Of a stretch of DNA of 64,000 bases, positions 7,637-44,457 are shown one piece after another; position 1 is the stretch's first letter; every line of letters starts with the position of its first letter. The translations under genes and the position numbers were made by a program. This stretch comes from Escherichia phage vB_EcoP_PE007. The notes under the pieces were generated by a model. That model did not search any database, was not told the DNA's origin, and worked only from the letters and a program-made list of their open reading frames with translations. The stretch lies in sequence record OQ938542.1; one strand, written 5' to 3'.

Positions 7637-7642
7637 ACCTAA

Positions 7643-26405: not shown

Positions 26406-26779
26406 AGAAAGATTATGGGGGTAAGTCGTAACCATACGACGGCGTAAGTACCAGATGAGACTTCTGGACGCCCCTACCAGATTTGGGGTGTAACAGTTAA
26501 ATCCAGTTGCCGGAAGTGCTATTCTAGATACGCTGCCAATGTGTGAACGGTAAGGCTGTACAGGACTCGGACTCCCGCCTCAAACCAAAGTCGCCAGGTA
26601 CTTATGGCAAACGGGTAGTAACGAACTAGTCATTCGTCAAACGCCCACCCTATTATGAGTCAGCAAGAACGCCTTCACTTAAACTTAAACAATATAAGCT
26701 TAACGCAATAATTATGTAGGGGTATGTAAGGATTGCGAAGAAGGAGCCAGTTAAAGTCTGGCATGACTCACTCATTTAT

Positions 26780-26853
26780 GCCCACTTAGCTTAGACGGGG
26801 AAAGCAACCGACTAATAATCGGAAGGTCACTGGTTCAAATCCAGTAGTGGGTA
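26780..26853 (+). tRNA. tRNA (hand-folded anticodon AAU; identity uncertain)
   Basis: Acceptor gcccact/agtgggt (7 bp, one GU), D-arm gctt/aagc, anticodon arm accga-ctaataa-tcgga, 5-nt variable loop, T-arm actgg-TTCAAAT-ccagt, discriminator A; 74 nt. Confidence 0.65.
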
Positions 26854-27080
26854 CTTATTAATAGAGAACATAGTCCTGATTGCATTGCACTCTAAAGACA
26901 ATGCCGGTGAGACAGTCCGGCACTCTAATTATTGAAAACATACCTAACGGTGTGAGTATGAGCAGACTATAATGCTCAATTACAGTTAACTATTATCGGA
27001 CTATCAATCCTGTTTGCTGGTACAAGCACCGGTGGTAATAGTTAACTGGCCTAGCCTCGTTAGCTGCGTTAAAGCTACTA

Positions 27081-27105
27081 AGTCCCTCTTCGGAGGGACT
27101 TTTTT
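27081..27105 (+). terminator. rho-independent terminator closing the tRNA/structured-RNA locus
   Basis: agtccctc-ttcg-gagggact followed by T5. Confidence 0.75.
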
Positions 27106-27169
27106 ATTTGAGTATTGATGAACGCAATCATGCTTAAGTACAAATTCAAACCACTCTATGAGGCTAATA

Positions 27170-27550
27170 ATGGCAACAGTAAGTAAAGAAGCAATCGAAG
27201 CTAAGATTAAGAGCATTTACTTTTTCAATGGTGCAGATGCAGTGAAGTCTGCATTCGTTGACCCTTCTGCACTACCGGCAGATGATTTGGCTAACCTGGG
27301 TCTGACAACCCATTGTGTAATCATTCTGGAAAATGGATTTAAAGTTGAAGGTGTATCTGCTTGCGTAGACCCAACTATCTATGATGAGCAGTTAGGTCGC
27401 CAGTATGCATATGAAAATGCATTCAATAAGATTTGGGAATTAGAGGGCTACCTACTACGTCAGGCACTGCATGAGAAGGAAGAGACTGCTAAAGCTTTGG
27501 CTTCCTTTGCAGAAAACAATACCTGTGATGGTGGTGGTTGTACAATTTGA
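27170..27550 (+). CDS. hypothetical protein
   Basis: ATG 27170 with gagg RBS; first gene after terminator 27081-27105. Confidence 0.5.
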   Translation: MATVSKEAIEAKIKSIYFFNGADAVKSAFVDPSALPADDLANLGLTTHCVIILENGFKVEGVSACVDPTIYDEQLGRQYAYENAFNKIWELEGYLLRQALHEKEETAKALASFAENNTCDGGGCTI

Positions 27551-27630
27551 TTCAAAGGTGTATGGTAGTTTTTACCGAAAGGTACTGAACTACCCGACAT
27601 GTGGTAAGGCTCATGAAGCCAAAACAAAAC

Positions 27631-27655
27631 AAGCCCTCCTAGTGAGGGCTTTCTC
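27631..27655 (+). terminator. hairpin terminator/attenuator
   Basis: agccctc-ctagt-gagggct followed by ttctcattt. Confidence 0.45.
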
Positions 27656-27668
27656 ATTTGAGGTAGTT

Positions 27669-28184
27669 ATGTCAGAAGAAATTAAAGTCCATTTCACCAA
27701 CTACATTGGAACCAAGTGTGTAAATGGTTTCCGAATGAACAAAGAAACATACTGCAAACTTCGAGGCTGGGATGTACCAGCAGATGAAGATCCACTAGAA
27801 GAAGGTTACTTAGTCGAGTACCCAGACTCTAAGTCCAACCAACCTCAATTTCGTGGTTATCCTCAGTTCCGTGGCTATATTAGCTGGTCACCTAAAGCTG
27901 CATTTGAAGCTGCATACCATGACGTAGAAAAAGGTTGTACCTTTGGTCATGCAGTAGAGCTTCTCAAATCAGGCTTCAAACTAGCCCGTAAAGGCTGGAA
28001 TGGCAAAGAGATGTATATTTCCTATGTTGACCCAAAAGAGTGGAATAGTAGTGAACTGGAGCGTCCATGGGATGAAGACCTTAAGCCACGCCCGTGGATT
28101 GGTATCAAAACCGTCGATAATGAGTATATGCCTTGGGTTCCATCCCAATCGGATGTATTAGCAGAAGACTGGGTAATTCTATAG
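27669..28184 (+). CDS. protein with possible DUF2829/Tad2-like C-terminal domain
   Basis: ATG 27669 with gagg RBS; C-terminal FGHAVELLKSGFKLARKGWNGKEMYISYV ... PWVPSQSDVLAEDWVIL; assignment is from recalled family motif, not a search. Confidence 0.45.
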   Translation: MSEEIKVHFTNYIGTKCVNGFRMNKETYCKLRGWDVPADEDPLEEGYLVEYPDSKSNQPQFRGYPQFRGYISWSPKAAFEAAYHDVEKGCTFGHAVELLKSGFKLARKGWNGKEMYISYVDPKEWNSSELERPWDEDLKPRPWIGIKTVDNEYMPWVPSQSDVLAEDWVIL

Positions 28185-28192
28185 GAAACTAT

Positions 28193-28486
28193 ATGGAACT
28201 CTTTAAGAAAGGGCAGCTTATACCTAAGCGTATTGGTGGATTGCATGTTCATCGTAAAACAAGACACCGTTTAACCTTTGGTTGTGATGTACAAATTGAC
28301 GGTAACAATTGGATTGCTGTGCCAGATACTGGAAATTCAATGGTTCATTGTAAGAAGTTAGGTATTCGCAGAAACAACGGTACTTACCAAAAGGTACATG
28401 CTGATTTTGTAGATATTTACTTTAATGCCAACAAGATTGATTATGTAATCAAAACTGACCGAAAAGCTCTTGTAGTTAAGAAATAA
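28193..28486 (+). CDS. hypothetical basic protein
   Basis: ATG 28193 with aggaaa RBS; followed by hairpin terminator 28493-28517. Confidence 0.45.
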   Translation: MELFKKGQLIPKRIGGLHVHRKTRHRLTFGCDVQIDGNNWIAVPDTGNSMVHCKKLGIRRNNGTYQKVHADFVDIYFNANKIDYVIKTDRKALVVKK

Positions 28487-28492
28487 AATAGA

Positions 28493-28517
28493 AGCCCCTC
28501 ATTAGAGGGGCTTTTTC
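28493..28517. terminator. bidirectional terminator between convergent genes
   Basis: agcccctc-atta-gaggggct with T-rich flanks on both strands; lies between the + strand gene ending 28486 and the vRNAP stop at 28520. Confidence 0.65.
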
Positions 28518-28519
28518 AT

Positions 28520-31500
28520 TTAGTTAGTAAGATTGAGCCACGGGTTCAGGGTATGAGCACGTAAGCCTTGACCGAAACCGAAGGAGTAACCAAGATTGCC
28601 CTGTGCAGCAATACTAAAGATGTTGTCCTGAATAGGCAGACCAACGTTACCAAACATGGTAGGGGTTGGAGCCAACATAGCTATAGCAGCATGCACCGGG
28701 TTATTACGAATCATGGACACTGCAACTTTTGCAGAACGAATCTTAAAGTTATAGAACCACATTAAACCAACACTTTCCATATACCCACGGAAGCGACCCG
28801 GTAGACGGTCATAGTTAATAAACTCTTCCGTTACACGTCCTAGTGCTTCTTCACGGGTCTTACCTTTACGCTGAGTCAGTTCATCATAAATGATTGCTTT
28901 AGCGATAAAGTCAGAGTACTCAACCGTCTTCTGGATACCCTGGAACAGAGCAGTATCCTTAGTGATAAGTGCATAACGACCTGCGTTACGTACAGACTTA
29001 GGCAGCTTATCAGCCAGCTTATCCATGTATTCGTGAAGTTTGCCTTCAGTAATAAGGATATCATCACGACCAATACCAGCATCTGCAATTGAGGAGAACT
29101 CACCAGCTTCCAGCAGAGGCCAGATACTCAAACGTTTATGGCTATCAGAGATGGACTGAATCTCAGCCTTAAGTTTACGAATCTGGTTCGGGTTAGTAGC
29201 TGCACGTAATTCTGCTTCTGCATCTACCTGACGCAGACGAGATTTCAGGTACTGGTTAATCTCAGCAGTCTTCTGTGGAATGCTCTTAGCAATGTTCTTA
29301 ACCGGTACACCACGAGCAATCATCTGATAAAGGTTAGCCAGGAAGTTAACAGCAGGTACGACTACTGACTTAACCACAATCAGAGTCTTAGCTTCTTTAA
29401 CTAAGTTCTGAACCAGGTTCTCACCACCCATTACATACTTATAGGCACGGTTGCCAAAGACACCCAGCATAGCTTTCTTGAAGGTATCCAGTGTTTCTGG
29501 TGACCAACGGGAATTACCAGACCAGGCATCACCTACAGAAGCTGCACGATAACCCAGAGCATCGTTGAGCATGTCACGACGTACCCATAATTCACCCGGA
29601 CCAAACAAACTTTCTGCTTTCTGACGGGTTTCACTGTTCATCAGCTTAAGTGCATCGGCAGTTACTGGGTCCAGTTTAGAACCAAGAAGGTTAACGTACT
29701 GGGACTTATTAGAAGCAGACATCTTAATGTCGTTCTCATACATGCTATGCAGGTTCTCAATCAGCATATCATTGAAACGCTGAGCCTTAGCTTCTTCCAC
29801 CTGACGACCACGCCATACACCGATTGCACGAGCAAGATGGTTCTCACCTTCAATGTGCTTCAGCATATTAGGGTCAATGGATTGCTCATAAGCAACCACA
29901 TTACCATTGGCATCATATACAGGCAGCAGTGGTTCATTACCACGTTCACCACGAGCCAGTGCTTTAGTGATACGGTCTACGGAAGGCTTGTCAGTGATAC
30001 GACCAGCTACCATGGTTCCCATAGTAAAGCCCGTACCGAGATCTACACCACCAGCAGTATTACGAACGTTCTGTAAGATACCTTGCGAGAAAGGAGCCTG
30101 TGCCTGTACTGGTGCAAAGTAGTAGCTACGTGCTGGTCCACGATTAGCAGAGCTACCCTGATAAGTACCAAGACGTACATAGGATTTCTCAATCAAATCA
30201 GCAAACTGACTATCTTCAGCAACAATCAGGTTAACACCCTGTTTGTTCTCAGTTGGGATGTATCCTTTGTACTGATTCAGGGTTGCACGAGTATCAGACT
30301 TAGCTTTAGCCATTTCATCTTTACGCTGACCAACCAGGTAAGAAGTAGCAAAGTCCATGCCTTCAATTTCTGTCTGAGCCAGTGAAGATAACATCTCACG
30401 GTCAGTCTTATTCATTGCTTCCAGTGCATACAAAGTAATCAGTTTATCCAACTGAGCTACATCTACAACAGAACGTGTAGTCTTACGTTCACCCAGTAAA
30501 CGAGAAATTGCAGTAGCATTACGTAGCAGGTTGTTACCAACCGTACCATTAATCATGTATTGAGCCAGTTGCTTAGATTTACGATTAATCAGAGGCCAGT
30601 TACGTCCTGCTTGTTTCTGTAAATCTGCTTCCAGTTTATTAACCTCACGGTCAACAATCTTCTGGTCAGTCAGCAGGTCACGGATTTCAGCCAGAGACAT
30701 AGTGTCGCGAAGAACAGCTAAGTCAGTTTTACCCATACCAGTATGCATTGCTTTCCACTCATCGTTAGTCAGCTTACGGCTGAACTTAGATGCGATAGTA
30801 GTAGGCAAATGCTCACGGAACTGCTGACGGTCAGCCTGTACCTGTGCACGTACTGCTTTAATCAAATCATATACAGAAGCATTGCTCTTAGTACGACCAG
30901 TTAAGTCATTAACCAGGTCATGGAAAGGTTGCCATACTTTACCCTGGTTCATTGCAGCCATAACACCTTCAGCTACGATTGCACCATTCTTCTCTGTAGC
31001 AATAGCAGCTATCAATTGTGCAGCATGAGCAGCACCTTTAACCAGTGGGTTCTTGGTATTAGCTGCAACTTCACGAGCACCTTCCAAAGCACGGGTAGAC
31101 AGTACATCAATAGAGTCCACCAGATACTGGTTAGCACGGTCAATAGCATTACCGGTAGGAGTAGCAACGGAATCATAGAAGGACTCTGCATTAAGACTGG
31201 TCTGCATAATTGTCTGAGCCAGTGCATCCATACCTTCCTGTACGTTAGTGGCTTTAGTATCACCTGCTACACGAGCATTCAGGCTAGCCATTGCAGCAGT
31301 ACCGATGTTAGTCAGCATTGCATCAACGGTATTGCCTGATTTCTTATCTGCTTTCATAACAGGAATATCAGCCAGTACCTTACGTACCTCTTCGCTTACC
31401 ATTGCCAGACCAACAAAGGTAGGCAGTAAGGAAGAACGACCTTGTGCATCAAATTCAATGTTGTTAGCACCCATGATGGTATCGAACTTCTGCTGTGCAT

Positions 31501-34500
31501 AGTAACGGTCAGCAGGGTTAGTACTATCCGGGTCAGCCATGAATGATTCGACGGTCAGATTCTTAGTAACATGCGTGTAGTATTCCTGTGCACGAGCCAT
31601 AGCAGCAGGGTTAATAGCAGCCTCGGTAGCCAGTGCAGCAACAATGTTAGTAAAGAGACGCTGTTCCTGCATATTCATGGTGAAGCCATGTGCCTGAACA
31701 TCACGAGTTACTTTAGTTGCATTTACTACTGCATCAGAGAACTTACCTTTACGAATTACTTGCTGTACTGGTTCTGAACCAATGTAGTTAGTAATCAGCT
31801 TATCGAAGGTTTTCCCTAGCTCTTCCAGACGAGTATTGTCACCGTATGCTTTGTTATGGAACAAGGTAGTATCTTTAGCTACAGCAGTAGTAGGGGCCTG
31901 CCCACGCATTACTACAGCAGAGTTAAACAGTAAGCCAGAGAACATATCATCTGCATTAGCAGGAGCTTTCTTACGTCCGAATACCAGACGTTTGATTGCT
32001 TCATATACAGCCTGAACCATAGTTTTAAGTGCAGTGGTTTTCTTCTGCTTACTTATAAGTTCACGGTTGGTTAAACCCCAAGCCATGTACTCATTCAGTG
32101 CAGCAGCTTTAGCCATCGCTGGTTCAATAAAGCCATTAGACAAGTGACCATTAATGGTATTCAGTGCATTAGCATATGCTTCACGTACTGCCGGAGATTC
32201 ATCCTTAACATCCAGAGCACGGAACTGATTCATCAGGTCTTCAATATTCTGTACTGCTTCATTAGGAGTACCTTCATAGTGAGCCAGTACAGATTCAAAA
32301 GTAGAAGCATGTACTAATTCATGAACCAGAGTCTCTAAGGAAGGAGTAACTAAGTAGATGGTTTTATCTTCAAAGTTAGTCCAGCCATATGCATTACCAG
32401 CCTCAGCAGCTTCAATATCTTCTGGTGCTGGGCGAGTAATATTCTTCTCAATAGCGTAGGCATCCAGTTGAGAAGGCGTACCGTAAACAACCTTATAGTC
32501 TTTAGCAGCAAGAGATTTCTGTATTTCTTTCAGTACTGCTTGTTGTTCAGGGGACATCTCTTTAGCCAGTTTAGTAATGGCAGCATTAGACAGCAGACGT
32601 ACACCAGACTTCAGTACACGACCGACCTGTTCCATTGCTGGCACTTCTTTCACTGGTTCTGCTTTAGCAGCACGTACTGCATCACGACGCTTGTTTAATT
32701 CAGCATCAAACAGTTCGTTCAGCTTAGCTACTTGCTGGTCTACAGTCAGACCTTCCAGAGAGATTTTACCGTTGTTCACATAAGGAGCACCAACAGCAGC
32801 CATCTGGTCAACAGTGACTTGTACCTGGTCCATTACCTTGTGGCGAATATCTACACCCAGAGCAATATTACGCAGATTACGTTCAATCTGTTCAGCACCA
32901 ACACGTAACAGGTCATCAGTAGCACCCTCACGTTGGTCGTATTCCAGTGCAGATTTAGCGATAGCTTGTTTGGTTTCATCAGACAGTTTGCTGAAGTCTA
33001 CGTTCTTCATGAACTTAGCAAAGGAGTCATAAACATTCTTGATAGGGTTACCCTGCCAGGAAGTATATACAGCCTCATTAGCTTTACGGCTTGCATCAGT
33101 AATGTCATTAATACCAATGTTCATACCATCAAAGATTTTCAGGGTATTCTTCGGAGCACCTTTCATAGTAGAAAGGGTCTGCATCATCATGCCATCACCT
33201 GTACCGATGGTCATAAATGGAATACCTGCTACACCTGCCTGTGAAGGAGCATAGATGATCATTGGCACACGCATACGGTCATCTAAGTTGGTAGCCAATA
33301 CTTGGTTAGCAACATCAGTATTCTCACTACCAGCAATGTAGAAAGTCTGTGAACCAGTCTCAATCATTGGAGCCAGTGGAGACAATGAAGCCTGGATTTC
33401 ATTCAGTTCTTTCTGTGTTAAGAAATCACCTTTCTTCCATGTTGGGTCTTTTTCTTTTTCTGCCAGCTTAGCCTGTACAGCTTGTTGGAACATATCCTGC
33501 AATACCAGAGATTGAATCTGAGTAGCCTTCTGTAAGTTCTCAGTAGAATACATCAGACCCTCACCAACAGTATTTCGGATACCAGTACGCATTGGTTCAA
33601 CGAACAGATGAAGCATGTTCTCTTGTAAGTTCTTCAGAGCATTACCGGATACAGTAAACTTCTGAGGGTCTAACTTACCAGTCAGAGCACCATCTACCTG
33701 CTGAATAGACAACTCACCTTTACGCATAACCGGAACATTACCAGTTAGTGCTTCCATAGAAGTAAGGAAAGTATCCAGCATAGCCTGAGCATCAGCCTCA
33801 GACGCAGCCTCCTTACCAAACATAGCCATAGCTGGGGAAATGCTAGGGTCAGCAGCACGGGCTTGTAGAACGTCACTGAAGCGTTCGTAGATGGTATCAG
33901 TAATTGCACTAACCATCTTGCCAGCAATACCACGAGCACCAGAACCATAGATGGTAATGGTCAGTGGGTTTTTAGCGATACCACGTTTCAGGTCCAGAGT
34001 ACCATCTTCATTAAGATTGAAGTCTTTAATGAACAGGTCCATTAACTTCTGAAGATGCTTCATCTGGTTCGTAACAGGAACGTTGTTACGGTAAGTATTG
34101 CGTAATTCATTCAGTGCCTGTTGCAGACTATTAGTAGATGCTTCATACAGGTCAACACTGTCATCATGCGAATGATGCTCGTTCATAGTCTTGCCAGCTT
34201 TACCGAAGAACAAGCCACCCTTAGCAGTATTCTTAATCCAGTCTGAAGTGAACTTACCACCAGTCATTAATACCATTGCGTTGATTGGTCCGTTGGTTAC
34301 ACCATCGGCTTCAACGTACAGTGGGGTATTAAAGTTAGCACGGTCATCACTGTTAAGGTAACGGGCATATTCCATAAGAGCCATGAGAGCTACGAATGAT
34401 TTATCATTCCCCAAGGAAGTCTTCAGAATATCCACTGCATTAGCAGGTAAGTGACCAGACTTATCAAACTCAACCATCATATCAACAGCAGGTTTCAGTT

Positions 34501-37500
34501 TACCTTCCAGAGCTTTAGTCAGCTCATCTGACATAACTTCACGGGACATTTTATGAACTTTAATGCCTAATGCCTGAGCCAGTCCAAGCTGGAAGTCAGA
34601 GAACGTTTGACTGTTTTCATTACTTAAGTCGATGGTAGAGAAGGTTGGAAGGATTGCTTCACGAACCAGCTTACTGGATTGTGGGTTGTTCTTACCAAGC
34701 ATCTGCATACGACCTACACGGGTCATGTTGTAGCCGTAGTGAATAGGTGTATCCAGTCCATTCTCCTGTTCCTTAATTTGATTGATTACACCAAACAAAG
34801 AATCATATGCCATGGACACGGACAGGTTCTTACCTTCCAGTGATTTAGCAGTATTCACATTAAGCAACTCTGGGGTAAGAGCACCAGCACCCATTAATTC
34901 CAGAATGTTGTCACGACCCAATGCTTCATAGAAGTTAACCATAGGCATATGTACACGAAACTCAGTAGCTTGTTCTGCTTTGAGAGCAGCTTTCTGTTCC
35001 GGGGTATTATTAACAGCAGGGTTACGTAACTGAGTTTGAGCCACGGAAGGAATGTCATCACCCAGATACAATTTCTCTACTGGTTCTAAAAGGACAGTTT
35101 CCTCAATAGCAGTAGGGAATTTATTAATGGCATCGTTATCATCCAGCTTCTCAATGGTATACAGACCAACAGTCTTATTAGATTCTGGGTCAATCTCAGA
35201 CACATCTAACATGGACTCTTTAACTTCACCCATCTCAATAAGGGAAGACAGAATCTCTGTAGCCATTGCCATTGGGATACCCTTGGTATACCCCAAAGGT
35301 GCATTAGGATTACGATTCAAACCCCAATAGGATTCAATCTTTTGAGCTAGTGAGTTAGTAGCTTCAACCAGGGTCTGAGCATTCTCGAAGTCAGCCAGAA
35401 TACCTTCTGGTAGCAGAGATGCTTCCACACCAGTAATAGCAGCTACGTCTTTCATGTCTTTAACAGCAGCATTCTGTGTAGCAGTCAATCGCCATTGCAG
35501 ACCAGCAAGTACAGCAGTTTCTAATAGCTGGTCATTGAACTTAAAGGTGTCACCATCTTTCTCTACGATGTTAAGTAACTTACCACCTACCCAACGGTTA
35601 GCCTCAGTACCTTCCGCAAAACGTTTACCAACGTTCTTGTTAGCAAGGAACTTAGCCAGACGGTCAGACAGAGTAGTCTTCAGAGTTTCACCAAACTCAA
35701 ATAAGTCCTGGTAACGCTTAATCACATCACTTGTGAGAGCGTTATTTTCTTTTTGAGTAAATGCTTCAAAGCGAGCAGCAGAAGACAGTGCTTTCTTAAC
35801 ATCAGTCAAAGGAGACTCAGAGCCAATGGTACGAGACTTAGGTTCTTCTGGAAGACTAAATGCTTTAAGGAACTGGTTCGGTGTCTTGTCATTGTTGTAG
35901 ACAGGGAACACTGTTTCCATTTGAGATAAAGGTTTACCACCAACGGTATAGTCTGCTTTCAACTGAGCCAGTGATACTTCTTCCTTCTCTACATTATTGG
36001 TATTACGCCCAGACGTATCTACACCAATCTGAATCAGTGCATTGTTTGCTTCTACGAATGATTGAACAGTATTGAATTGTTCAGGAGTCAGCTTCTGATT
36101 ATCAAACAGTTGTAATGATACAAATGGTTGCTCACTTCCTTTGTAGAAAGTGGAGCGTACAGCACCAGTATCCAGAGACATATCACGGTAACCATCATGA
36201 CCAAATACATCAGACAGACTGATATGGTCACCATTGGAACCAACAACAGTACCATCATCAAAGAGCCAAGGACTCTCCTTACGGTCACCATACTTATTAA
36301 GAGTATCCTGTGAAATAGTATTCTCTTTCACATAAGAATCTCTTTCAGATTCAGTAGGCTGTTCAACGGTATCCTGTTTTTCAGATTGGTTCTCAGGTTC
36401 TTTTACAGTCTGTGGTTTAGACTCTTTAATAGTAGGTTCTGTTTTAACAGCTTCACTAACAGAGGGTTTAGTCTGTACAGTAGGGGTAACTGGTTCCTGT
36501 TTTGTAACAGGAGTTTCATCAACCTGATTCACTGGTTCATTGGTCTGTTGGGATTGAGCAGCATCAAGATTGCCCTGACGGAACTCTTTAACTACCTGGG
36601 CGGCAGGCTTGTCCAAACGTGAATCCAATGGGGTAACTTTCACATGAGAAACATTAAGCTCCGGGTAAGCCGTAGCAAGTGCGTTAGCAATATCAGCTAC
36701 GGTCTTGGCTTCCAGTCCTACTTGCTGGGCAAACTTAACAGACTTGGTATCATACGGATTGACACCGAGGCCAGTACGACTACGTACCCATTCACGCGAG
36801 GGAGTAAGAGCCTGATAATGGACAGACTTATTCTTATCCGCATTCCCAGAAATCAAATGCTCATTCAACGCTCCGACCTTATTCTGCATGTGCTGGGCGA
36901 ACTTCATAAAATCGCTCAGATAAGCGGAGGCCAAATCGAAGTTACCAGAGTTATACGCAGAACGAATGCGTTTCGCATGTTGCAACGCAGAGTACTGTCC
37001 TTCATTAGAACGAGACTCATCGGTTTTAATCTGTTTACTAACAATATCTTGAGGACGTAAGCCTAGTTCTTCTGCTTTAGCGTCGAACTCTCGTGCACCC
37101 TGTAATAAGGCAGCAGCAGATTGCAGGGCAGCACGTTGACGATTCCCCAGTGTAATCTTACCTTCACTTGCATGTTTCAGAACCATGTTCACTGAATCTG
37201 CATCCAGCACTTCTGGAGATACATCAGCAGCCATAGCAATGTTGTTTGCTTGGGCTTGGTTAGCTTCTTCAGTAGCTTTCAGTTTACCTGCTTCAGCCTG
37301 TTCCTGAATCATGGAATGGATGGCACGGAATGCACGAAGTACCTTCGGTGTATTCTGAACGTTAGCCATCAGGCCGGAGAATTGGTCTACGATTGCAGCA
37401 GCAGGGGAACCTTGTTCCAGATTAGCCAAAGCACCCGGGTCACGGTTAATGAAGCTATCCATAGACATGATATTGTCATACATCTGGATTGCAGCTTCCA

Positions 37501-39274
37501 TTTGAACGTTAGGGTCTTCGGCAGTATTAACCAAGTCAGCCATCTTCTGAATAGCTTCTACACGGTTAGTGGAACCAGAAACAGCTTCACGGATTGCTGG
37601 GTTAGTTTGTTCCAATTCTACCGGGTCAAACTTCATTGCCTGAGTTAAGTCAGCAGCATACTGGGTAGCAGCAGCTTTCTCTTCTGGAGAAATATCCATT
37701 GCATCCACTGCTTCCTGAACAGTTGCTTGAGCTTGTTCTGCCTGAGCAGTAGCTTCTTGTGCAGCAGCGTTAACCGTAGCATCAGATACGGGGGATGCTT
37801 GTTCATTACGCTTAGCAACTTCTTCCCCACGTTGAACCAGGATGTTAGTAATAGGTGAAGCTACTTTTGCTAGTGCCTTACCAGCCAAAGAAGCACCAGC
37901 CAGGGTAGTACGTACAGCAGGACCAACGGCAGCACCAGCAGCCTTAACAGTTGCACCAGGAGCTTGAGCAACTCCAGCAGAACCGAAGCCATACAATGCA
38001 CCCAGACCAGTTTGTTCACCCACACCTTTAAGCAAATCACGCTCAGCATCTACATTGCCATGAATTGCCTTGTTTTGTGCAAACTGACTTGTACCAGACT
38101 GGATACCTTCTTCTACAGTCTCACGCAGCATGTTAGAACCAGCACCAGCCAGTGAACCTACCTTAAGTGGGTTAAGTTCAAACTTGGATACCAGTGGAGC
38201 AGTAAGAGCAGCAACTGGAGCAGTTAAGCCAGCAGCAGTGATACCTGTTTCAGATGCAGTCTGGCGACGTGCTTCTTCAGGAGACAGACCGTCTTTAATA
38301 TGCTGTTGGTATACAGGAGATTTAGCAGCCAGTTCACTGAATGGCATTTCCATAATTTCATTAGCAGTCTGTTGGTATGCACCACCAGCTTCCATACCAC
38401 CAATTGCTATAGCAGGTGCAGCAACACGACCAGCAGTCTGTGCAATACGTGCAGGACGATAACCTAATTCAGCAGCTAGGGTAATACCCTTAACAGCTTT
38501 ATCACCACCTACCATTACTTTACCAAGTGCAGATACACCACGGATAAGTGGACCACCTGTAAAGAGGGAACCAACACCTTCACTCAGTCCGTCAGAAGCA
38601 GCCATACCATTATCAAGTGTGTTAGCAACAGAATCAAAAGCGTCACGACCAATACGAGACAAGGAGGCAACCAAATCGCTCCCCCCATTTTTGATATCTT
38701 GTTCATAGAGCTTCTGGTTCTTCCGTGCAGAAATCTGGTTCTGATTCTGAACAACTTTACGTGTAGCATTCAGTGCATCAGACTGTAGATTGTGTACACC
38801 CTCATTCAACCAATCCATCCCGGAAGCAATGGTTGCCCCGGCATTATTATTGACCAAACCTGCGCCAAGAGCAGCAATGCCCCCAAGGGTATTAGCAACA
38901 CCAAGACCAACACCAGAAAGAGTATCGCCAAATGCTTCTGCGTTAGTACGTTGTTTAGATAAGTCCTGACGTACAACATCAGCAGCATTAGCTCGGCTAT
39001 TAAGAATCTGTAAACCTTGCTCATTACCGTACTTATTAATGATTTCTAATGGGGAGGCTTGAGTGAAATCTGCCTGAAGTGAACCTGGTTCGAATGCACC
39101 GATTCCAAGATTACCTACTCGTCCAGTCTGGAGATTGTAAGCATTCTCTGGGGTTAATTGGAAAGGGCTTTGCCCTTGTGCAGCTTGCTTCTGAGAGGTT
39201 GCAGTAGAGACATCGACTTGCTTAGCATTAGTGATGCTGTCTGCGAAACCTGCCAGACGGTCAAATGTTGACAT
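28520..39274 (-). CDS. virion-encapsidated RNA polymerase (vRNAP, N4 gp50-like)
   Basis: Single uninterrupted ~3584-aa ORF, a size characteristic of N4-like vRNAP; ATG at 39274 with aggaaa RBS (track start 39292 is TTG). Confidence 0.85.
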   Translation of the reverse strand: MSTFDRLAGFADSITNAKQVDVSTATSQKQAAQGQSPFQLTPENAYNLQTGRVGNLGIGAFEPGSLQADFTQASPLEIINKYGNEQGLQILNSRANAADVVRQDLSKQRTNAEAFGDTLSGVGLGVANTLGGIAALGAGLVNNNAGATIASGMDWLNEGVHNLQSDALNATRKVVQNQNQISARKNQKLYEQDIKNGGSDLVASLSRIGRDAFDSVANTLDNGMAASDGLSEGVGSLFTGGPLIRGVSALGKVMVGGDKAVKGITLAAELGYRPARIAQTAGRVAAPAIAIGGMEAGGAYQQTANEIMEMPFSELAAKSPVYQQHIKDGLSPEEARRQTASETGITAAGLTAPVAALTAPLVSKFELNPLKVGSLAGAGSNMLRETVEEGIQSGTSQFAQNKAIHGNVDAERDLLKGVGEQTGLGALYGFGSAGVAQAPGATVKAAGAAVGPAVRTTLAGASLAGKALAKVASPITNILVQRGEEVAKRNEQASPVSDATVNAAAQEATAQAEQAQATVQEAVDAMDISPEEKAAATQYAADLTQAMKFDPVELEQTNPAIREAVSGSTNRVEAIQKMADLVNTAEDPNVQMEAAIQMYDNIMSMDSFINRDPGALANLEQGSPAAAIVDQFSGLMANVQNTPKVLRAFRAIHSMIQEQAEAGKLKATEEANQAQANNIAMAADVSPEVLDADSVNMVLKHASEGKITLGNRQRAALQSAAALLQGAREFDAKAEELGLRPQDIVSKQIKTDESRSNEGQYSALQHAKRIRSAYNSGNFDLASAYLSDFMKFAQHMQNKVGALNEHLISGNADKNKSVHYQALTPSREWVRSRTGLGVNPYDTKSVKFAQQVGLEAKTVADIANALATAYPELNVSHVKVTPLDSRLDKPAAQVVKEFRQGNLDAAQSQQTNEPVNQVDETPVTKQEPVTPTVQTKPSVSEAVKTEPTIKESKPQTVKEPENQSEKQDTVEQPTESERDSYVKENTISQDTLNKYGDRKESPWLFDDGTVVGSNGDHISLSDVFGHDGYRDMSLDTGAVRSTFYKGSEQPFVSLQLFDNQKLTPEQFNTVQSFVEANNALIQIGVDTSGRNTNNVEKEEVSLAQLKADYTVGGKPLSQMETVFPVYNNDKTPNQFLKAFSLPEEPKSRTIGSESPLTDVKKALSSAARFEAFTQKENNALTSDVIKRYQDLFEFGETLKTTLSDRLAKFLANKNVGKRFAEGTEANRWVGGKLLNIVEKDGDTFKFNDQLLETAVLAGLQWRLTATQNAAVKDMKDVAAITGVEASLLPEGILADFENAQTLVEATNSLAQKIESYWGLNRNPNAPLGYTKGIPMAMATEILSSLIEMGEVKESMLDVSEIDPESNKTVGLYTIEKLDDNDAINKFPTAIEETVLLEPVEKLYLGDDIPSVAQTQLRNPAVNNTPEQKAALKAEQATEFRVHMPMVNFYEALGRDNILELMGAGALTPELLNVNTAKSLEGKNLSVSMAYDSLFGVINQIKEQENGLDTPIHYGYNMTRVGRMQMLGKNNPQSSKLVREAILPTFSTIDLSNENSQTFSDFQLGLAQALGIKVHKMSREVMSDELTKALEGKLKPAVDMMVEFDKSGHLPANAVDILKTSLGNDKSFVALMALMEYARYLNSDDRANFNTPLYVEADGVTNGPINAMVLMTGGKFTSDWIKNTAKGGLFFGKAGKTMNEHHSHDDSVDLYEASTNSLQQALNELRNTYRNNVPVTNQMKHLQKLMDLFIKDFNLNEDGTLDLKRGIAKNPLTITIYGSGARGIAGKMVSAITDTIYERFSDVLQARAADPSISPAMAMFGKEAASEADAQAMLDTFLTSMEALTGNVPVMRKGELSIQQVDGALTGKLDPQKFTVSGNALKNLQENMLHLFVEPMRTGIRNTVGEGLMYSTENLQKATQIQSLVLQDMFQQAVQAKLAEKEKDPTWKKGDFLTQKELNEIQASLSPLAPMIETGSQTFYIAGSENTDVANQVLATNLDDRMRVPMIIYAPSQAGVAGIPFMTIGTGDGMMMQTLSTMKGAPKNTLKIFDGMNIGINDITDASRKANEAVYTSWQGNPIKNVYDSFAKFMKNVDFSKLSDETKQAIAKSALEYDQREGATDDLLRVGAEQIERNLRNIALGVDIRHKVMDQVQVTVDQMAAVGAPYVNNGKISLEGLTVDQQVAKLNELFDAELNKRRDAVRAAKAEPVKEVPAMEQVGRVLKSGVRLLSNAAITKLAKEMSPEQQAVLKEIQKSLAAKDYKVVYGTPSQLDAYAIEKNITRPAPEDIEAAEAGNAYGWTNFEDKTIYLVTPSLETLVHELVHASTFESVLAHYEGTPNEAVQNIEDLMNQFRALDVKDESPAVREAYANALNTINGHLSNGFIEPAMAKAAALNEYMAWGLTNRELISKQKKTTALKTMVQAVYEAIKRLVFGRKKAPANADDMFSGLLFNSAVVMRGQAPTTAVAKDTTLFHNKAYGDNTRLEELGKTFDKLITNYIGSEPVQQVIRKGKFSDAVVNATKVTRDVQAHGFTMNMQEQRLFTNIVAALATEAAINPAAMARAQEYYTHVTKNLTVESFMADPDSTNPADRYYAQQKFDTIMGANNIEFDAQGRSSLLPTFVGLAMVSEEVRKVLADIPVMKADKKSGNTVDAMLTNIGTAAMASLNARVAGDTKATNVQEGMDALAQTIMQTSLNAESFYDSVATPTGNAIDRANQYLVDSIDVLSTRALEGAREVAANTKNPLVKGAAHAAQLIAAIATEKNGAIVAEGVMAAMNQGKVWQPFHDLVNDLTGRTKSNASVYDLIKAVRAQVQADRQQFREHLPTTIASKFSRKLTNDEWKAMHTGMGKTDLAVLRDTMSLAEIRDLLTDQKIVDREVNKLEADLQKQAGRNWPLINRKSKQLAQYMINGTVGNNLLRNATAISRLLGERKTTRSVVDVAQLDKLITLYALEAMNKTDREMLSSLAQTEIEGMDFATSYLVGQRKDEMAKAKSDTRATLNQYKGYIPTENKQGVNLIVAEDSQFADLIEKSYVRLGTYQGSSANRGPARSYYFAPVQAQAPFSQGILQNVRNTAGGVDLGTGFTMGTMVAGRITDKPSVDRITKALARGERGNEPLLPVYDANGNVVAYEQSIDPNMLKHIEGENHLARAIGVWRGRQVEEAKAQRFNDMLIENLHSMYENDIKMSASNKSQYVNLLGSKLDPVTADALKLMNSETRQKAESLFGPGELWVRRDMLNDALGYRAASVGDAWSGNSRWSPETLDTFKKAMLGVFGNRAYKYVMGGENLVQNLVKEAKTLIVVKSVVVPAVNFLANLYQMIARGVPVKNIAKSIPQKTAEINQYLKSRLRQVDAEAELRAATNPNQIRKLKAEIQSISDSHKRLSIWPLLEAGEFSSIADAGIGRDDILITEGKLHEYMDKLADKLPKSVRNAGRYALITKDTALFQGIQKTVEYSDFIAKAIIYDELTQRKGKTREEALGRVTEEFINYDRLPGRFRGYMESVGLMWFYNFKIRSAKVAVSMIRNNPVHAAIAMLAPTPTMFGNVGLPIQDNIFSIAAQGNLGYSFGFGQGLRAHTLNPWLNLTN

Positions 39275-39344
39275 AGCATGTTTCCTGTTCAAACTTATAT
39301 CGTATATAGGTAACTTACTCTACAGTAAGCCAGTTAAAGAAAAA

Positions 39345-39358
39345 AGCCCCGTAGGGCT
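39345..39358 (-). terminator. terminator/attenuator upstream of vRNAP
   Basis: agccc-cgta-gggct; on the minus strand followed by a T-run (complement of aaagaaaaa). Confidence 0.5.
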
Positions 39359-39368
39359 TTTATTAGTA

Positions 39369-41333
39369 TTACCGATTTTGTCTGGGTTGCATATACTCAG
39401 GCAGTCCTTGTGCCTGACGTAAGTACCGTGCAGCACGTTCTTCATCTTCCTTGGCTCGTGCTCTATCCACACTAGCCTGTGACTGGAAACCTCTTGGAGC
39501 CAGGTTAGCTGGGTCAGCCTGTACTTGTGCCTGTGCAGCTTGGAGCATTGCAGCAGCTTTAGTAACAGCCTCCTGACGTGCAGGTAAAAGAGCAGTAAGA
39601 CCGCTTTGTCCGGTGTTAATCTTATTCTGGGTATTTGCCAGTGCAGCTACAGCAGCATCATATGCAGTCTGTGCCGCCTGAATATTCTGCATAGCTTGAG
39701 CACGACCAAGGTTACGAACACTACCTTCCAGTGGTTCACCCCGTTTCACACCCTCGATTAACTGTTCTACCTGACGGTCATTAAGACGCATACCATTACC
39801 TGCTTCATTGGTAATGAATGGGTTAACTGCATCAATAGCACGACTAATATAACCCTCTGGTACACCAGTCTGTGCACGTTGCATAACAGCAGCAGCCATA
39901 GCAGGTGACATATTCCCACGTTGAGAAATATCGTTCAGTCGATTCAGTACCCAGTTACGGTCAGCACCTTTAAAATCACCCTCCAGCAAACGATTAGCAA
40001 TCTCACCTACTGGGGTATTATCAGTGACAGTACCAAGGAAGTCTGTGTTAAGACTACCAGTGTTATCCTGCATAGAACGAGTACCAATCATACCCTGAGC
40101 CAGAGTAGATACTGCCTGATTACCTTGATTATTCTGAACCATAGCAAGTGGGTCAGCCCCTACTTCAGCTTGAGCAATAACAGGTTTAATCTGTTCCCAA
40201 GTCATATCCTTATAAGCACCTGGGGTAGAGTTAGGCAGAGCAGCCCAAGTATCTTTAAGGTTACCGTTCTTACGAGACTCGAAGATAGCCTTACCAATCT
40301 TATCCTGGTTCTCAGGAGAAAGAGGCTGGCTTTGCCAATCTGAACCAAGAACTTTGGGAGCGAAGTCTTTCAGAGTAGCTTGGTTAATCTGGAATGCACC
40401 AACAGGTGAAGCACCTTGATTCGACTTCATACCATCCTGGTGTTTAATTACATCACCAATACTCATTTGAGTAATAGGGGTAGATGTACCGGCAAACTGG
40501 TAAGTAACATCGTAAGGGGAACCCTGACGAGTACCAGCAGTGCCAGGAGCAGACGCAGCACCTACGCCATTGCCGTATACACCCGGGTAAGTACTAGCCA
40601 GTAAACTCTGTAAACGTGCCTGTGCAACTGGGGACAAGTTCTTACTGTATGCTTCTGCCAACAGACGGGCATCATTAGGGTTCTCAGCACCACGGGTAAT
40701 CTGTGACATTACACCCATAGCTGCCTGACTGTCAGCATCATTACGTTGAGCAACACCTAAATCAAAACGATTCTGTGCCTGATTAATAGCCTGACCACCC
40801 TGACCTTGTAGACGACCCATCATCTCCAGTTGTTGGTCAGCAGGGAGTGCAGACAGTGCATCACGGGTCTGACTTAATGCAGCATTAATACGGTTCTGGT
40901 CACCGGACTGATAAGCCTCAGACAGTAAACGAATAGCCGGGGAAGCATTATCTAATGCAGTGTTAGTATCCTGTAAACGACCAAAGCGATAAGCAATGTA
41001 GTCATTGGTTCCCTGCTGTCCTTGTTGTGTCAGTAATGTACCTGCTCGTTCATCCAGGTTTTGGAGGGTACGTTGATTTACCAGTGAAGGATCAACCCCC
41101 TGAAACAGTGCACCAGATGCCAAAGCATTACGGTACTCATTCGGGTCTTGGTACTGCATAGCATTCATCATGACGGCATTGCCAGCCTCCTGCTTGGCAG
41201 CGTTCTGGAAATTACCCAGTGCATCACTTAAGCCGGAGGTGGCGTTACCAATCATGCTACCAAATGTGCGAATGCTGTCACCAACTCCAGAGAAGTTAGG
41301 TGCATCAACATTTCTCCACGTTATCTGAGCCAT
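39369..41333 (-). CDS. virion protein (N4 gp51-like position)
   Basis: ATG 41333; Gln/Ala-rich; a weak SLT-like GAFQI motif. Confidence 0.5.
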   Translation of the reverse strand: MAQITWRNVDAPNFSGVGDSIRTFGSMIGNATSGLSDALGNFQNAAKQEAGNAVMMNAMQYQDPNEYRNALASGALFQGVDPSLVNQRTLQNLDERAGTLLTQQGQQGTNDYIAYRFGRLQDTNTALDNASPAIRLLSEAYQSGDQNRINAALSQTRDALSALPADQQLEMMGRLQGQGGQAINQAQNRFDLGVAQRNDADSQAAMGVMSQITRGAENPNDARLLAEAYSKNLSPVAQARLQSLLASTYPGVYGNGVGAASAPGTAGTRQGSPYDVTYQFAGTSTPITQMSIGDVIKHQDGMKSNQGASPVGAFQINQATLKDFAPKVLGSDWQSQPLSPENQDKIGKAIFESRKNGNLKDTWAALPNSTPGAYKDMTWEQIKPVIAQAEVGADPLAMVQNNQGNQAVSTLAQGMIGTRSMQDNTGSLNTDFLGTVTDNTPVGEIANRLLEGDFKGADRNWVLNRLNDISQRGNMSPAMAAAVMQRAQTGVPEGYISRAIDAVNPFITNEAGNGMRLNDRQVEQLIEGVKRGEPLEGSVRNLGRAQAMQNIQAAQTAYDAAVAALANTQNKINTGQSGLTALLPARQEAVTKAAAMLQAAQAQVQADPANLAPRGFQSQASVDRARAKEDEERAARYLRQAQGLPEYMQPRQNR

Positions 41334-41345
41334 GGTGGTTTCCTA

Positions 41346-41789
41346 TTAACGGGTTAGTTTATTGGCTGCAATATAAGCATCAGCCGAAGACTGGTCACGA
41401 TTTTCTGCTGTAGCACGGCTACGAGCACGGTCTTCCAGTGCAGTGTTATAAGACTTAATCTGGTTATTCAGGTTAGTGTTAGTAACACTCTTAGTAAAGT
41501 TCAGCTGGTCTTTGGCTAACTTGTTAGCCTGGAAACCACTATAGATACCAGCTAAGGAACCAAGTGCACCGAGTCCTAGTTGGAAGGTGGGTACATTCAT
41601 ACCCAACTGATTAGCTGAACCAGACAAGAAGGAAGTAGGGGAGGCTACTCCTGTACCTGCATTCATACCAATAGCTGCACCCGGATTGTAGTTCATAGCT
41701 GGGGTATTAAAATTCTGATTGTTATTAGACATCCAAGACATAGCAGCTGGCTGTGGGGTTTGGTTGCCTGTTAAGAATGACAAATCCAT
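41346..41789 (-). CDS. virion protein (gp52-like position)
   Basis: ATG 41789 with aggaga RBS (track start 41810 is TTG). Confidence 0.45.
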   Translation of the reverse strand: MDLSFLTGNQTPQPAAMSWMSNNNQNFNTPAMNYNPGAAIGMNAGTGVASPTSFLSGSANQLGMNVPTFQLGLGALGSLAGIYSGFQANKLAKDQLNFTKSVTNTNLNNQIKSYNTALEDRARSRATAENRDQSSADAYIAANKLTR

Positions 41790-41802
41790 AGGGATTCTCC
41801 TG

Positions 41803-44457
41803 TTAAACAAGGTCAGTATTAAGAGTCATATCAGAGTAGCTTCCAATCATGTTTAAAGACATGTCAGCTATATCCGAACCAGTCATGAGAGTACGTGAGA
41901 GGAAAGAATCCATCGACTCCATTGACACAAATTGCATAGGGTCAATTACACCCTGCCCAGCAGTACCAAACATCTCTTCATACTGCTTATTGATTGCCAT
42001 CATATCAGTATTGTACTGCTGCATTACTTTCTCTGCTTTCTGAATAGTAGCAGCCGTAGATGCATTAATATACTGGCTAATACCATTACCTACTGAACTG
42101 GTAAGCTGCATGATGTTCTGAGCATTCATCATTTCACTGGCTAAGGTAGATAAGGATGAACCAGTAGATAGAGCAGTACCAACATTCATAGCTACCATTG
42201 AAGCAACAGCAGCAATGATAAAACCTAGCTTATCACCAAAGAGTGAAGTGGATACTTTAGTGATAATAGATACCAGAATCATTGCAGCAATGGCGTTTGC
42301 TACAGCACCTACTATTACAGCAGCTAATCCAACAAAACCGAGTGACGCCCCAACTGCTCCATATGCCCCAAGTATACCTGCACCACCAGTACCCATAGTG
42401 AATACGGATACAACGACAGCAACCACAACAACCACAATCTTAAAGGCAGATGTTTGATACCACTTCTGCTTAACCTTCTTATATGAGTTCATCACCAAGT
42501 AAGAACAGGCAGTAGATAACTGAGTACTACGAACCAGTGACATTGAACGGTAGATGTTAGTATGTAGTGGAATAATGAACCCACTCTCCTCTGCATCACC
42601 CATTGCTTCGGCAACATCAATATGCACTGACTTATTCTTATATACCCTGTTATTGTGATTTAGACCCAGTACTCTAAGTTTACGATAAGTGTTATTACCA
42701 TCCTGCCAAAGCAGTTCATACTCCTGCATAGAATAGAATGTAGTGGTAACCTCTAACTTCTTAGCTGAACCGGAGTTACTAGCAGTTCGTATGTTCTTGC
42801 GAGTAAGAGTTATATCCCCTGCATACCTGGCTCGAAGTTGTCCTTGCTTAGCACCAGACCATGCTTGCCCTGAGTGGGTAGTTTCAGATACGTAATTCCA
42901 ACCAATGGTCATGTCATACTTGTAATGCTTATTACTATGTACCCTAAATTCTCTCTTAGGTATGACTGGGTATTCTGGCAGTGGTGGAGGAGTTCCAATA
43001 GTGTGCCCTTCAGTCCTATTCCACCATTCTACATATGCATCAACTGCATCATTAGCTGCCTGATAACCTGCAATCACTGCCTCCAAGGTTGGATAGGTTG
43101 GGTCAGGTGGGAATGCTTCAGTAGCCATCTGAAAGAAACGGTAGATGTATTCCTTAGCAGTATCTTCAGGAGTATTAAGAGATACGCCAAATGTGCCATA
43201 AATGTACTGAATATCACCTATATCATCATTCTTCTTAAGCTCTGTTACTACCTTATCAATTTTTCCACCGGTAGCTTTATAAAGAGCTTTCTTACAGTAT
43301 GGATAGATTGGGTCATTCTCTACCCATTGTTTATCGTTCCTGATTGGAATAAATGGATAGAATCGATTATCGGTAGCCTCAGTATCGAACAGTGAGTCTA
43401 GTGCAACGTTACCAGAGTTCTGCTTATAGATAAGCATCTTAGGTGTACCAACAGCAGTCATCTCTGTATCTGTACGAGTAGTCTGGGAGGAATACTTACG
43501 AACCAGTGTCTCTGTGGTTGTAGTGATTGTATCGGTACGAGTAACACCACCACCTATATCAACTACATTGGTAGTTACAGAAGTACTGGATTGAATCTCA
43601 CCAAACTTTTTATGAGTCATTACCCTGTCAGATACAACTACAGTTACGTCATCAGGTTTTTCAGTGAATCCTCTACGGTAAACCTTAATGTAAGAGTTCC
43701 AGTTATCTACACTTGGTTCGGTGACAGTACTGTCTTCATCTGGTCTACCATCAGAATAAACAGAATGAGTCTGTATAGTCTTAGTGAGATTAGTTGTATT
43801 AGCTGTTGTATCACTTGAAACAGTAGTCCATAACAAAGTAGAAGGTAAGTCATCCTCATCATCATAGACAGTAGTCGGTCCCTCTACCGGTGGATTGATA
43901 GACGGGGACTTATAGAATGAGTAATCAGCATAGAGATACAAAGCACCTGGTTCAAAGTTAGTAGGTGTGAATTTAATAGTAGAACCACCATCCAGGGAGA
44001 TCATAGTAATTTCATTAGTATCTTCATTGATGTCTATGTCGAATCGTTCCATGATTCGACTAGGAGCATTTTCATAAAGATATTGGTCACACCATTGCTC
44101 AAAGTCAGCAAAGCCAATTTCTGCTGCCTGAACATAGACAGACTCTCCAGCAGGTGGTGTAATTTGACCCTCTATAACAGTAGGGTCAATCTTAGCCAAT
44201 ACACCCAACGAAGAACCAGCCATACCAACTTCTGAATCATAGTGGTTCTTACTCCAGCTGGAGAACAATCGCATACGAATACCAGGTCCATTCAGATAAC
44301 TATCAGAGATAGTGTCTGCCATAGTGAATCCTGTATTGGAAACAATGTTACCGATGACTACAGTCTTCATATAGTTAGGACGTTTGTGTATATCCCCTGC
44401 CATGTTATAGACAGAGGATGCTACGTATACTTTAGTCTTCCCACTGAATAAGCCCAT
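41803..44457 (-). CDS. large virion protein with hydrophobic Gly/Ala/Val-rich C-terminal region
   Basis: ATG 44457; C-terminal VVVVVAVVVSVFTMGTGGAGILGAYGAVGASLGFVGLAAVIVGAVANAIAAMILVSII. Confidence 0.55.
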   Translation of the reverse strand: MGLFSGKTKVYVASSVYNMAGDIHKRPNYMKTVVIGNIVSNTGFTMADTISDSYLNGPGIRMRLFSSWSKNHYDSEVGMAGSSLGVLAKIDPTVIEGQITPPAGESVYVQAAEIGFADFEQWCDQYLYENAPSRIMERFDIDINEDTNEITMISLDGGSTIKFTPTNFEPGALYLYADYSFYKSPSINPPVEGPTTVYDDEDDLPSTLLWTTVSSDTTANTTNLTKTIQTHSVYSDGRPDEDSTVTEPSVDNWNSYIKVYRRGFTEKPDDVTVVVSDRVMTHKKFGEIQSSTSVTTNVVDIGGGVTRTDTITTTTETLVRKYSSQTTRTDTEMTAVGTPKMLIYKQNSGNVALDSLFDTEATDNRFYPFIPIRNDKQWVENDPIYPYCKKALYKATGGKIDKVVTELKKNDDIGDIQYIYGTFGVSLNTPEDTAKEYIYRFFQMATEAFPPDPTYPTLEAVIAGYQAANDAVDAYVEWWNRTEGHTIGTPPPLPEYPVIPKREFRVHSNKHYKYDMTIGWNYVSETTHSGQAWSGAKQGQLRARYAGDITLTRKNIRTASNSGSAKKLEVTTTFYSMQEYELLWQDGNNTYRKLRVLGLNHNNRVYKNKSVHIDVAEAMGDAEESGFIIPLHTNIYRSMSLVRSTQLSTACSYLVMNSYKKVKQKWYQTSAFKIVVVVVAVVVSVFTMGTGGAGILGAYGAVGASLGFVGLAAVIVGAVANAIAAMILVSIITKVSTSLFGDKLGFIIAAVASMVAMNVGTALSTGSSLSTLASEMMNAQNIMQLTSSVGNGISQYINASTAATIQKAEKVMQQYNTDMMAINKQYEEMFGTAGQGVIDPMQFVSMESMDSFLSRTLMTGSDIADMSLNMIGSYSDMTLNTDLV

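Follow-up and report, generated by a model that had tools for sequence, protein, structure and literature searches.

The virion RNA polymerase gene of Escherichia phage vB_EcoP_PE007: terminator-like hairpins on both sides, a covarying hairpin with an invariant box, and a module inserted in the linker

Layout of the locus

We analyzed a 64,000-nucleotide (nt) stretch of DNA from Escherichia phage vB_EcoP_PE007 (sequence record OQ938542.1), hereafter the window, and examined its giant minus-strand open reading frame (ORF), the protein that it encodes and the hairpins in the spacers on both of its sides. The gene encodes the ortholog of gp50, the virion RNA polymerase (vRNAP) of phage N4, and the gene order follows N4 gp49-gp50-gp51-53, with a convergent gp49-like gene, the vRNAP gene and then, upstream, the orthologs of gp51, gp52 and gp53. 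The gene and its control features lie as follows.

28490-28515, both strands: bidirectional terminator-like hairpin GCCCCTC-TAAT-GAGGGGC, between the convergent vRNAP gene (minus) and the last rightward gene (plus)
28520-39274, minus strand: coding sequence of the vRNAP (gp50 ortholog), 3584 amino acids (aa), stop codon at 28520-28522, start codon ATG at 39274
39282-39286, minus strand: Shine-Dalgarno sequence AGGAA, 7 nt 5′ of the ATG
39290-39301, minus strand: invariant box GATATAAGTTTG with a -10-like TATAAG, 10-12 nt downstream of the second hairpin
39314-39329, minus strand: second hairpin or inverted repeat CTTACT-GTAG-AGTAAG, between the upstream terminator-like hairpin and the start codon
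39342-39361, minus strand: upstream terminator-like hairpin AAAAGCCC-TACG-GGGCTTTT, between the gp51-like stop codon (39369-39371) and the vRNAP ATG
39369-41333, minus strand: gp51 ortholog (virion/ejection protein; phrog_6126), the upstream neighbor of the vRNAP gene

Identity of the giant open reading frame

Counted from its first possible start codon, a TTG, the ORF spans 28520-39292 on the minus strand. The start Met at 39274 is common to all relatives (MSTFDRLAGFADS in the window and MSVFDRLAGFADS in N4), and from this ATG the gene has exactly 3584 codons plus a stop, in agreement with a first-pass annotation made from the letters alone, which had described an N4-type vRNAP of ~3584 aa at 28520-39274. 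Megablast with the gene matched 88 phage records, 57 of which cover at least 80% of it; the best matches, PD38 and Bp4, are annotated ‘virion RNA polymerase’ and share 95.9-96.0% DNA identity over 99% of the gene. A phmmer search of PDB sequences returned E = 0 both for the full-length N4 gp50 cryo-EM entries 9PNQ, 9PNR and 11GP, and for the mini-vRNAP crystal structures 2PO4, 3C2P and 3Q0A, with stretches aa 1-990 and 1132-3583 aligned to N4 residues 1-1004 and 1028-3499. Four vRNAP-specific Pfam families score far above the gathering cut-off of 27 bits (PF21894, 337 bits; PF21867, 195; PF21769, 190; PF21624, 94), and phrog_2206, ‘virion RNA polymerase’, matches aa 25-3583.

The length of 3584 aa lies within the relatives’ range of 3450-3748 aa, as expected for the single giant ORF (~3400-3800 aa) of such a phage. 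Every property of an N4-type vRNAP that can be read from a sequence is present, including size, RNA polymerase (RNAP) motifs, Pfam domains, collinearity of the N- and C-terminal domains, and neighborhood. To the extent that sequence evidence can do so, this establishes the ORF as the gp50 ortholog of a Gamaleyavirus (Enquatrovirinae, Schitoviridae), and the first-pass identification stands on the 96% DNA identity to the PD38 and Bp4 genes, the phmmer and Pfam matches, and synteny.

In N4, a few copies of the vRNAP are carried in the capsid and ejected before the DNA, and its central T7-like single-subunit domain transcribes the early genes from DNA-hairpin promoters. By analogy, the vRNAP of the window would be packaged in the virion, injected, and responsible for early transcription from hairpin promoters.

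Protein anatomy and catalytic residues

Alignment with N4 gp50, which the first-pass annotation had named as the way to locate the central polymerase motifs, placed all of them and found every catalytic residue intact. The parts of the protein, all encoded on the minus strand, are as follows.

36560-39274: N-terminal domain, aa 1-905, collinear with the N-terminal domain of N4 gp50 at 44-88% identity per 100-aa block
36296-36559: low-complexity linker rich in P, T, Q, E and K, aa 906-993
35930-36322: inserted globular module, aa ~985-1115, ~120 aa, with the core SPWL..DG..GDH..TGAIR..Q
32663-35926: central single-subunit RNAP domain (mini-vRNAP equivalent), aa ~1117-2204, with the Pfam domains vRNAP_dom_2 (aa 1426-1541), plug (1558-1639), N4_RNAP_helical (1717-1933) and vRNAP_dom (2015-2159)
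33128-34711: span of the catalytic motifs, by alignment to N4 mini-vRNAP
34709-34711: R1522 of TxxGR, aligned with R424 of N4 mini-vRNAP
34304-34306: D1657 of motif A, aligned with D559 of N4 mini-vRNAP
33971-33973 and 33947-33949: K1768 and Y1776 of motif B; R1764/K1768/Y1776 correspond to R666/K670/Y678 of N4 mini-vRNAP
33128-33130: D2049 of motif C, aligned with D951 of N4 mini-vRNAP
28523-32662: C-terminal domain, aa 2205-3584
32309-32323: zincin-type HExxH (HELVH) in the C-terminal domain, aa 2318-2322

The N4 mini-vRNAP positions, which we take to be those of the motif residues, fall on the expected N4 residues in our alignment. The contacts that N4 mini-vRNAP makes with its promoter hairpin, W129, K114 and R119, correspond to W1228, K1213 and R1218 in the window and are all conserved. 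Compared with N4 in 100-aa blocks, the protein is 44-94% identical throughout, apart from aa ~991-1116, which fall on gaps in the N4 sequence. The T7-like motif set of the N4 vRNAP has been described (PMC4496689), as have the HExxH motif and MPTase of its C-terminal domain (PMC5512222 and PMC13434306), and its N-terminal domain is likely membrane-spanning (PMC13434306). The translated sequence of the window contains an intact N-terminal domain, flexible linker, polymerase domain and C-terminal domain with its HExxH motif.

Within the linker, the DNA for aa ~915-969 (~36368-36530, minus strand) is 90.8% identical to N4 and unalignable to PD38, whereas the rest of the gene is ~70% identical to N4, a pattern that indicates a recombination patch acquired across genera from an Enquatrovirus-like donor. 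The corresponding linker of N4 (residues 907-1006) is also of low complexity, and because of it the N-terminal and polymerase domains are not connected to each other (PMC13434306).

Terminator-like hairpins on both sides of the gene

The downstream hairpin has a stem of 9-11 base pairs (bp), six of them G-C, and T-rich tails on both strands; the first-pass annotation had put a bidirectional hairpin closing the gene at 28493-28517, and we find it at 28490-28515. It folds with -20.1/-18.6 kcal/mol (z = -5.5/-4.4), a stability reached by 0 of 200 shuffled sequences, and it is nearly identical in PhAPEC5, PD38 and N4. A terminator is annotated there on both strands in PhAPEC5, PhAPEC7 and G7C. N4 transcription is organized in rightward (early/middle) and leftward (late) units (PMC4496689), and by analogy the downstream hairpin would mark the point where the two meet. 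The vRNAP gene would then be the last gene of the leftward late transcription unit, and this strong bidirectional hairpin at its 3′ end would stop the late transcript as well as the rightward transcripts that converge on it, and so guard against read-through in antisense.

The upstream hairpin, as RNA, reads AAAAGCCC-UACG-GGGCUUUU followed by UUCUUU, directly past the gp51-like stop codon. Its 8-bp stem (four G-C pairs) is followed by UUUUUUCUUU, and stem, loop, U-run and position after a stop codon are all those of an intrinsic terminator; the hairpin that the first-pass annotation had noticed between the upstream virion gene and the vRNAP start, at 39345-39358, is the GC core of this structure. 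The opposite strand also forms a hairpin with a T-run, and the folding energies are -12.0 kcal/mol in the sense direction (z = -2.9) and -10.7 kcal/mol on the other strand (z = -3.0). We compared 13 distinct gp51-gp50 spacers from Gamaleyavirus, Moovirus, Kaypoctavirus and Enquatrovirus (N4 itself), together with IMG/VR contigs; a pattern scan of IMG/VR supplied few new intergenic variants, and of the 22 loci that it returned, 5 (four distinct sequences) proved to be unrelated coding matches and were discarded. A hairpin with a T-run lies directly past the gp51 stop in 13/13 of these spacers, spanning four genera, with loops that vary (TACG, TTCG, TCCG, ACTA, ATAC, ATCC) and a stem that is kept (GCCC/GGGC or GCCCC/GGGGC). 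The upstream terminator is annotated in PhAPEC5, PhAPEC7 and AL25.

N4 virions contain 4 ± 1 copies of gp50 and 12 copies each of gp51 and gp52 (PMC13434306). With the vRNAP needed in such low numbers (~4 per virion), a hairpin ahead of its 10.7-kb gene would fit an attenuator role. The hairpin and U-run past gp51 may act as an intrinsic terminator or attenuator that lowers read-through into the vRNAP gene.

A covarying second hairpin and an invariant box

Between the upstream hairpin and the start codon, a second hairpin is present with a perfect 6-7 bp stem in 13/13 spacers, built from seven different stem sequences around loops of 4, 6 or 8 nt. The stems are CTTACT/AGTAAG, GCTTACT/AGTAAGC, (A)CTCACT/AGTGAG(T), ATTCACT/AGTGAAT, TCACTA/TAGTGA, CACACT/AGTGTG and ACACTA/TAGTGT, so that the pairing is kept by several two-sided compensatory changes across Gamaleyavirus, Moovirus, Kaypoctavirus and Enquatrovirus. 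Mononucleotide shuffling of one spacer yielded such a stem in only 3-4% of cases, which is the chance per sequence. Folded on its own, one sequence gives nothing notable here (z = -1.3); what speaks for the hairpin is the covariation.

Downstream of this hairpin, the box GATATAAGTTTG is identical in every Enquatrovirinae sequence examined, with (A/T)A(C/T)AGGAA between it and the start codon. The 12-mer is the sole copy in the window at 0-1 mismatch, and its count at two mismatches is not above chance. Over nine lineages, the spacer has a mean column identity of 84%, higher than the ~70% DNA identity at which the flanking coding sequences of N4 and the window agree.

By a wider fuzzy search, we also found a related box, TAATAGACATAACTTTG, at 61118-61134 on the minus strand, upstream of the gp69 ortholog. 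A conserved GGGGT-N5-ACCCC hairpin comes before it, and the gp69-like gene, at 60415-61104, is the first of the late genes. This box and the vRNAP box may be late promoters of one kind. We do not regard a general late-promoter motif as established from the GATATAAGTTTG and TAATAGACATAACTTTG boxes, the N4 counterpart of the 61118-61134 box being more diverged.

The second hairpin and the box could give the gene either a weak late promoter of the N4SSB/sigma-70 type or a control element in its 5′ untranslated region (5′ UTR). That they are the gene’s own weak late promoter is a tentative reading to which we assign not quite an even chance; that they are an RNA-level element of the 5′ UTR, serving processing or translation, is possible with a lower probability. 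The promoter reading has to contend with a sigma-70 consensus scan of 39275-39341, within the 94-nt spacer, in which no site passed the -35/-10 criterion. N4 late promoters resemble sigma-70 promoters only weakly (PMC9163698), so a missing consensus does not exclude promoter function. The ONT-cappable-seq data for phage LUZ7 (PMC9163698) were set aside as a guide, that phage being too distant for transfer. Sequence determinants of N4-like late promoters have been poorly described so far. N4 late promoters were reportedly mapped by Cho et al. in 1995.

Competing readings of the hairpins

The best-surviving alternative takes the hairpins mainly as stabilizers of RNA 3′ ends or as processing signals within one long late transcript, with the second hairpin and the AU-rich stretch UUACCUAUAUACGAUAUAAGUUUG forming an RNase E-type site or translational operator that would set vRNAP output post-transcriptionally. 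Several properties of the spacer suit such an RNA element: the run of 20 or more nt from the box to the Shine-Dalgarno sequence is invariant across genera with ~70% coding identity and exceeds what a -10 hexamer needs, G-U pairs can lengthen the second stem on the sense strand but not on the other, its arms covary around a loop of 4-8 nt as expected for a nucleic-acid hairpin, and the sigma-70 scan shows no consensus promoter. Against this, the upstream hairpin carries the canonical U-run of an intrinsic terminator, and a related box heads the late region, a place that has to have a promoter. We consider this account unlikely, though it is the one to be taken most seriously.

A second alternative treats the inverted repeats as sites acting at the DNA level, either the operator of a dimeric phage regulator or a hairpin promoter of the vRNAP type. 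The second repeat is indeed centered near the -35 position relative to TATAAG, and N4 early promoters are extruded DNA hairpins (PMC4496689). However, the distance between half-sites varies (4, 6 or 8 nt) and substitutions in one arm are compensated in the other while no fixed arm sequence is kept, which is unlike a protein operator, and the promoters of the N4 vRNAP, which are found in the early region, have loops of 3 nt (PMC4496689, PMC9163698). The hairpins here are on the late strand, where the two flanking ones carry T-runs and the second repeat does not. Because arm spacing varies and the arms covary, we favor a nucleic-acid hairpin over a protein operator; on loop size, variable spacing and arm covariation we rejected a role of the second hairpin as an early promoter for the vRNAP or as an operator, and DNA-level sites in general appear very improbable.

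Terminator-like sites in 27000-42000 number 16, compared with 10.6 ± 4.0 in shuffled sequences, and the scan alone is not decisive. The two flanking hairpins are among its strongest sites, are intergenic and are conserved out to N4; because of this position, strength and conservation, we judge them to be more than chance. That they are functionless, chance GC-rich palindromes is barely credible, since a count only ~1.3 standard deviations above the shuffled expectation for the region is outweighed by their recurrence at matching intergenic sites across four genera (N4 included), by loops that vary while stems are kept and by folding z-scores that reach -5.5, and conservation already contradicts it.

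The flanking hairpins are real, conserved and already annotated as rho-independent terminators, and termination at them is predicted from their sequence. We hold it highly probable that the locus as a whole is explained by the vRNAP gene of a G7C/Bp4-type N4-like coliphage with terminators on both sides and a weak control region of its own. Several observations weigh against this explanation. The downstream hairpin has a broken U-tract on the sense strand (UUCUAUUUU), and the upstream hairpin is modest, with four G-C pairs and z ~ -3. The hexamer TATAAG does not end in the usual T, and the unbroken invariance from the box to the Shine-Dalgarno sequence suits an RNA-level element as well as it does a promoter. 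Our literature searches gave no transcript maps for N4 or G7C, and termination and initiation are both inferred. The first-pass annotation had taken the hairpins as a hint of separately regulated transcription: this suggestion is strengthened by the covarying second hairpin and the invariant -10-like box, finds no sigma-70 consensus promoter to support it, and is best described as plausible and short of proof.

A module inserted into the linker

Compared with the N4 gp50 structure, the linker region at aa ~991-1131 is diverged and expanded, and this is the region of the inserted globular module listed above, a non-repetitive segment that comes after the low-complexity linker. By tblastn, only 28 phage records carry it, all of them Gamaleyavirus-type coliphages or Shigella phages, and by alignment it is missing from the vRNAPs of N4, PhAPEC7 (3450 aa), Moo19 and KP8. 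The 3748-aa vRNAP of G7C (HQ259105) has the module and, in the same linker, a second, unrelated insertion of ~150 aa (alignment columns 971-1091). The number of modules per linker is therefore zero in PhAPEC7, one in the window and PD38, and two in G7C.

An exhaustive HMMER search of 1.84 billion representatives found 19 proteins with the module, most of them 1100-3700 aa long, with the domain at varied positions. These homologs include proteins with LPD38, LPD39, LPD22, SLT, SNF2-type helicase and methyltransferase domains, that is, members of the polyvalent-protein class; among the 19 there are also one distant N4-like vRNAP and one stand-alone protein of 166 aa. Positions S, P, L, G, D-H, R and Q are invariant in the module alignment, and AlphaFold with that alignment produced a confident alpha/beta model (predicted local distance difference test (pLDDT) 88.6; predicted template modeling score (pTM) 0.80), which superseded a poor single-sequence model (pLDDT 54). 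An alignment-based homolog search with the module gave one protein, whose genomic context, with a ParB-like neighbor and a prokaryotic ubiquitin-like cluster, was uninformative.

The stand-alone 166-aa homolog is encoded at 7294-7794 of a phage-like metagenomic contig. Its neighbors there comprise a ParB_N/HTH_ParB protein of 585 aa together with a cluster of the prokaryotic ubiquitin-like type (Prok_Ub/E2/JAB/ThiF).

Comparisons with known folds and families returned little. The module had no match in Pfam, LPD families included, at E ≤ 10; Foldseek gave nothing significant against PDB (best E 0.18) and, against BFVD, only the pSb-1 vRNAP fragment itself; the module profile against PDB sequences reached a best E of 0.039 with an unrelated protein; and PADLOC found no defense or anti-defense match for the window’s copy. 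A PD-(D/E)XK-like fold (Hjc, tRNA-splicing endonuclease, YqaJ) recurred as a weak Foldseek match and was not accepted (E > 0.08, TM < 0.31).

Iyer et al. (2017; PMC5512222) described N4-like vRNAPs as polyvalent proteins, in which RNAP, MPTase and variable accessory domains are delivered together with the DNA. The accessory domains named there for vRNAPs are ART, lysozyme and PBECR, whereas the module of the window matches no LPD or Pfam family. From its sequence relationships, the module looks like a further, undescribed accessory domain of polyvalent-type vRNAPs. A confidently folded, uncharacterized domain in the linker of an injected protein, common to polyvalent proteins, is a candidate for an early-acting effector.

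A bolder proposal, which we regard as speculative and rather unlikely, is that the Gamaleyavirus vRNAP linker is an exchangeable cargo slot, that the module is an injected effector, possibly enzymatic, directed against the host or its defenses, and that the hairpin and box form an undescribed late promoter or operator architecture. If this were true, the module would act on the host, for example against defense systems, within the first seconds of infection.

Neighboring genes

The gp49-like protein (27669-28184, plus strand) contains a Pfam Tad2-like domain (Thoeris anti-defense 2, formerly DUF2829; E = 3e-24), and its gene lies one gene upstream of the convergent terminator that it shares with the vRNAP gene. 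Between that gene and the shared terminator lies an extra 97-aa ORFan (28193-28486, plus strand; phrog_29107), which is present in E20 and F22 and apparently missing from PD38, Bp4 and ECBP1, where about a quarter of the 26700-28520 query is uncovered. A single tRNA gene at 26780-26854 (plus strand) was called tRNA-Ile with the unusual anticodon AAT, and is labeled tRNA-Ile, tRNA-Xle or tRNA-Val in relatives. Rfam at the gathering threshold found tRNA only.

Significance and comparison with known systems

Near-identical genomes already have the vRNAP gene and both terminators annotated, so these are known features and their identification here is correct but ordinary; the gene serves as a correct landmark that places the window as a Gamaleyavirus genome. 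The small new observations are the covarying hairpin with its invariant box, and a linker module common to polyvalent proteins. The hairpin-plus-box element could help to define how N4-like phages control late expression of a very long gene whose product is needed in very few copies.

The closest relatives, PD38 and Bp4 (Gamaleyavirus Bp4), share with the window the length class (3570 aa), the inserted module and the flanking intergenic sequences, the upstream spacer being 100% identical. PD38 differs in the ~50-aa linker stretch at aa ~915-969, which is unalignable between the two, while that of the window is 91% DNA-identical to N4. The terminators of PhAPEC5, PhAPEC7 and G7C, called by ARNold or by the G7C authors, occupy the same positions with near-identical sequences and are predictions, as are ours. 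N4 gp50 resembles the window’s vRNAP in full-length collinearity, catalytic motifs, promoter contacts, plug and helical domains, and the HExxH motif of the C-terminal domain, and the N4 locus has the same gene order, both flanking hairpins and the GATATAAGTTTG box. Unlike the window, N4 is without the ~110-120-aa globular module between linker and polymerase domain, and its second-hairpin stem is ACACTA/TAGTGT, whereas that of the window is CTTACT/AGTAAG.

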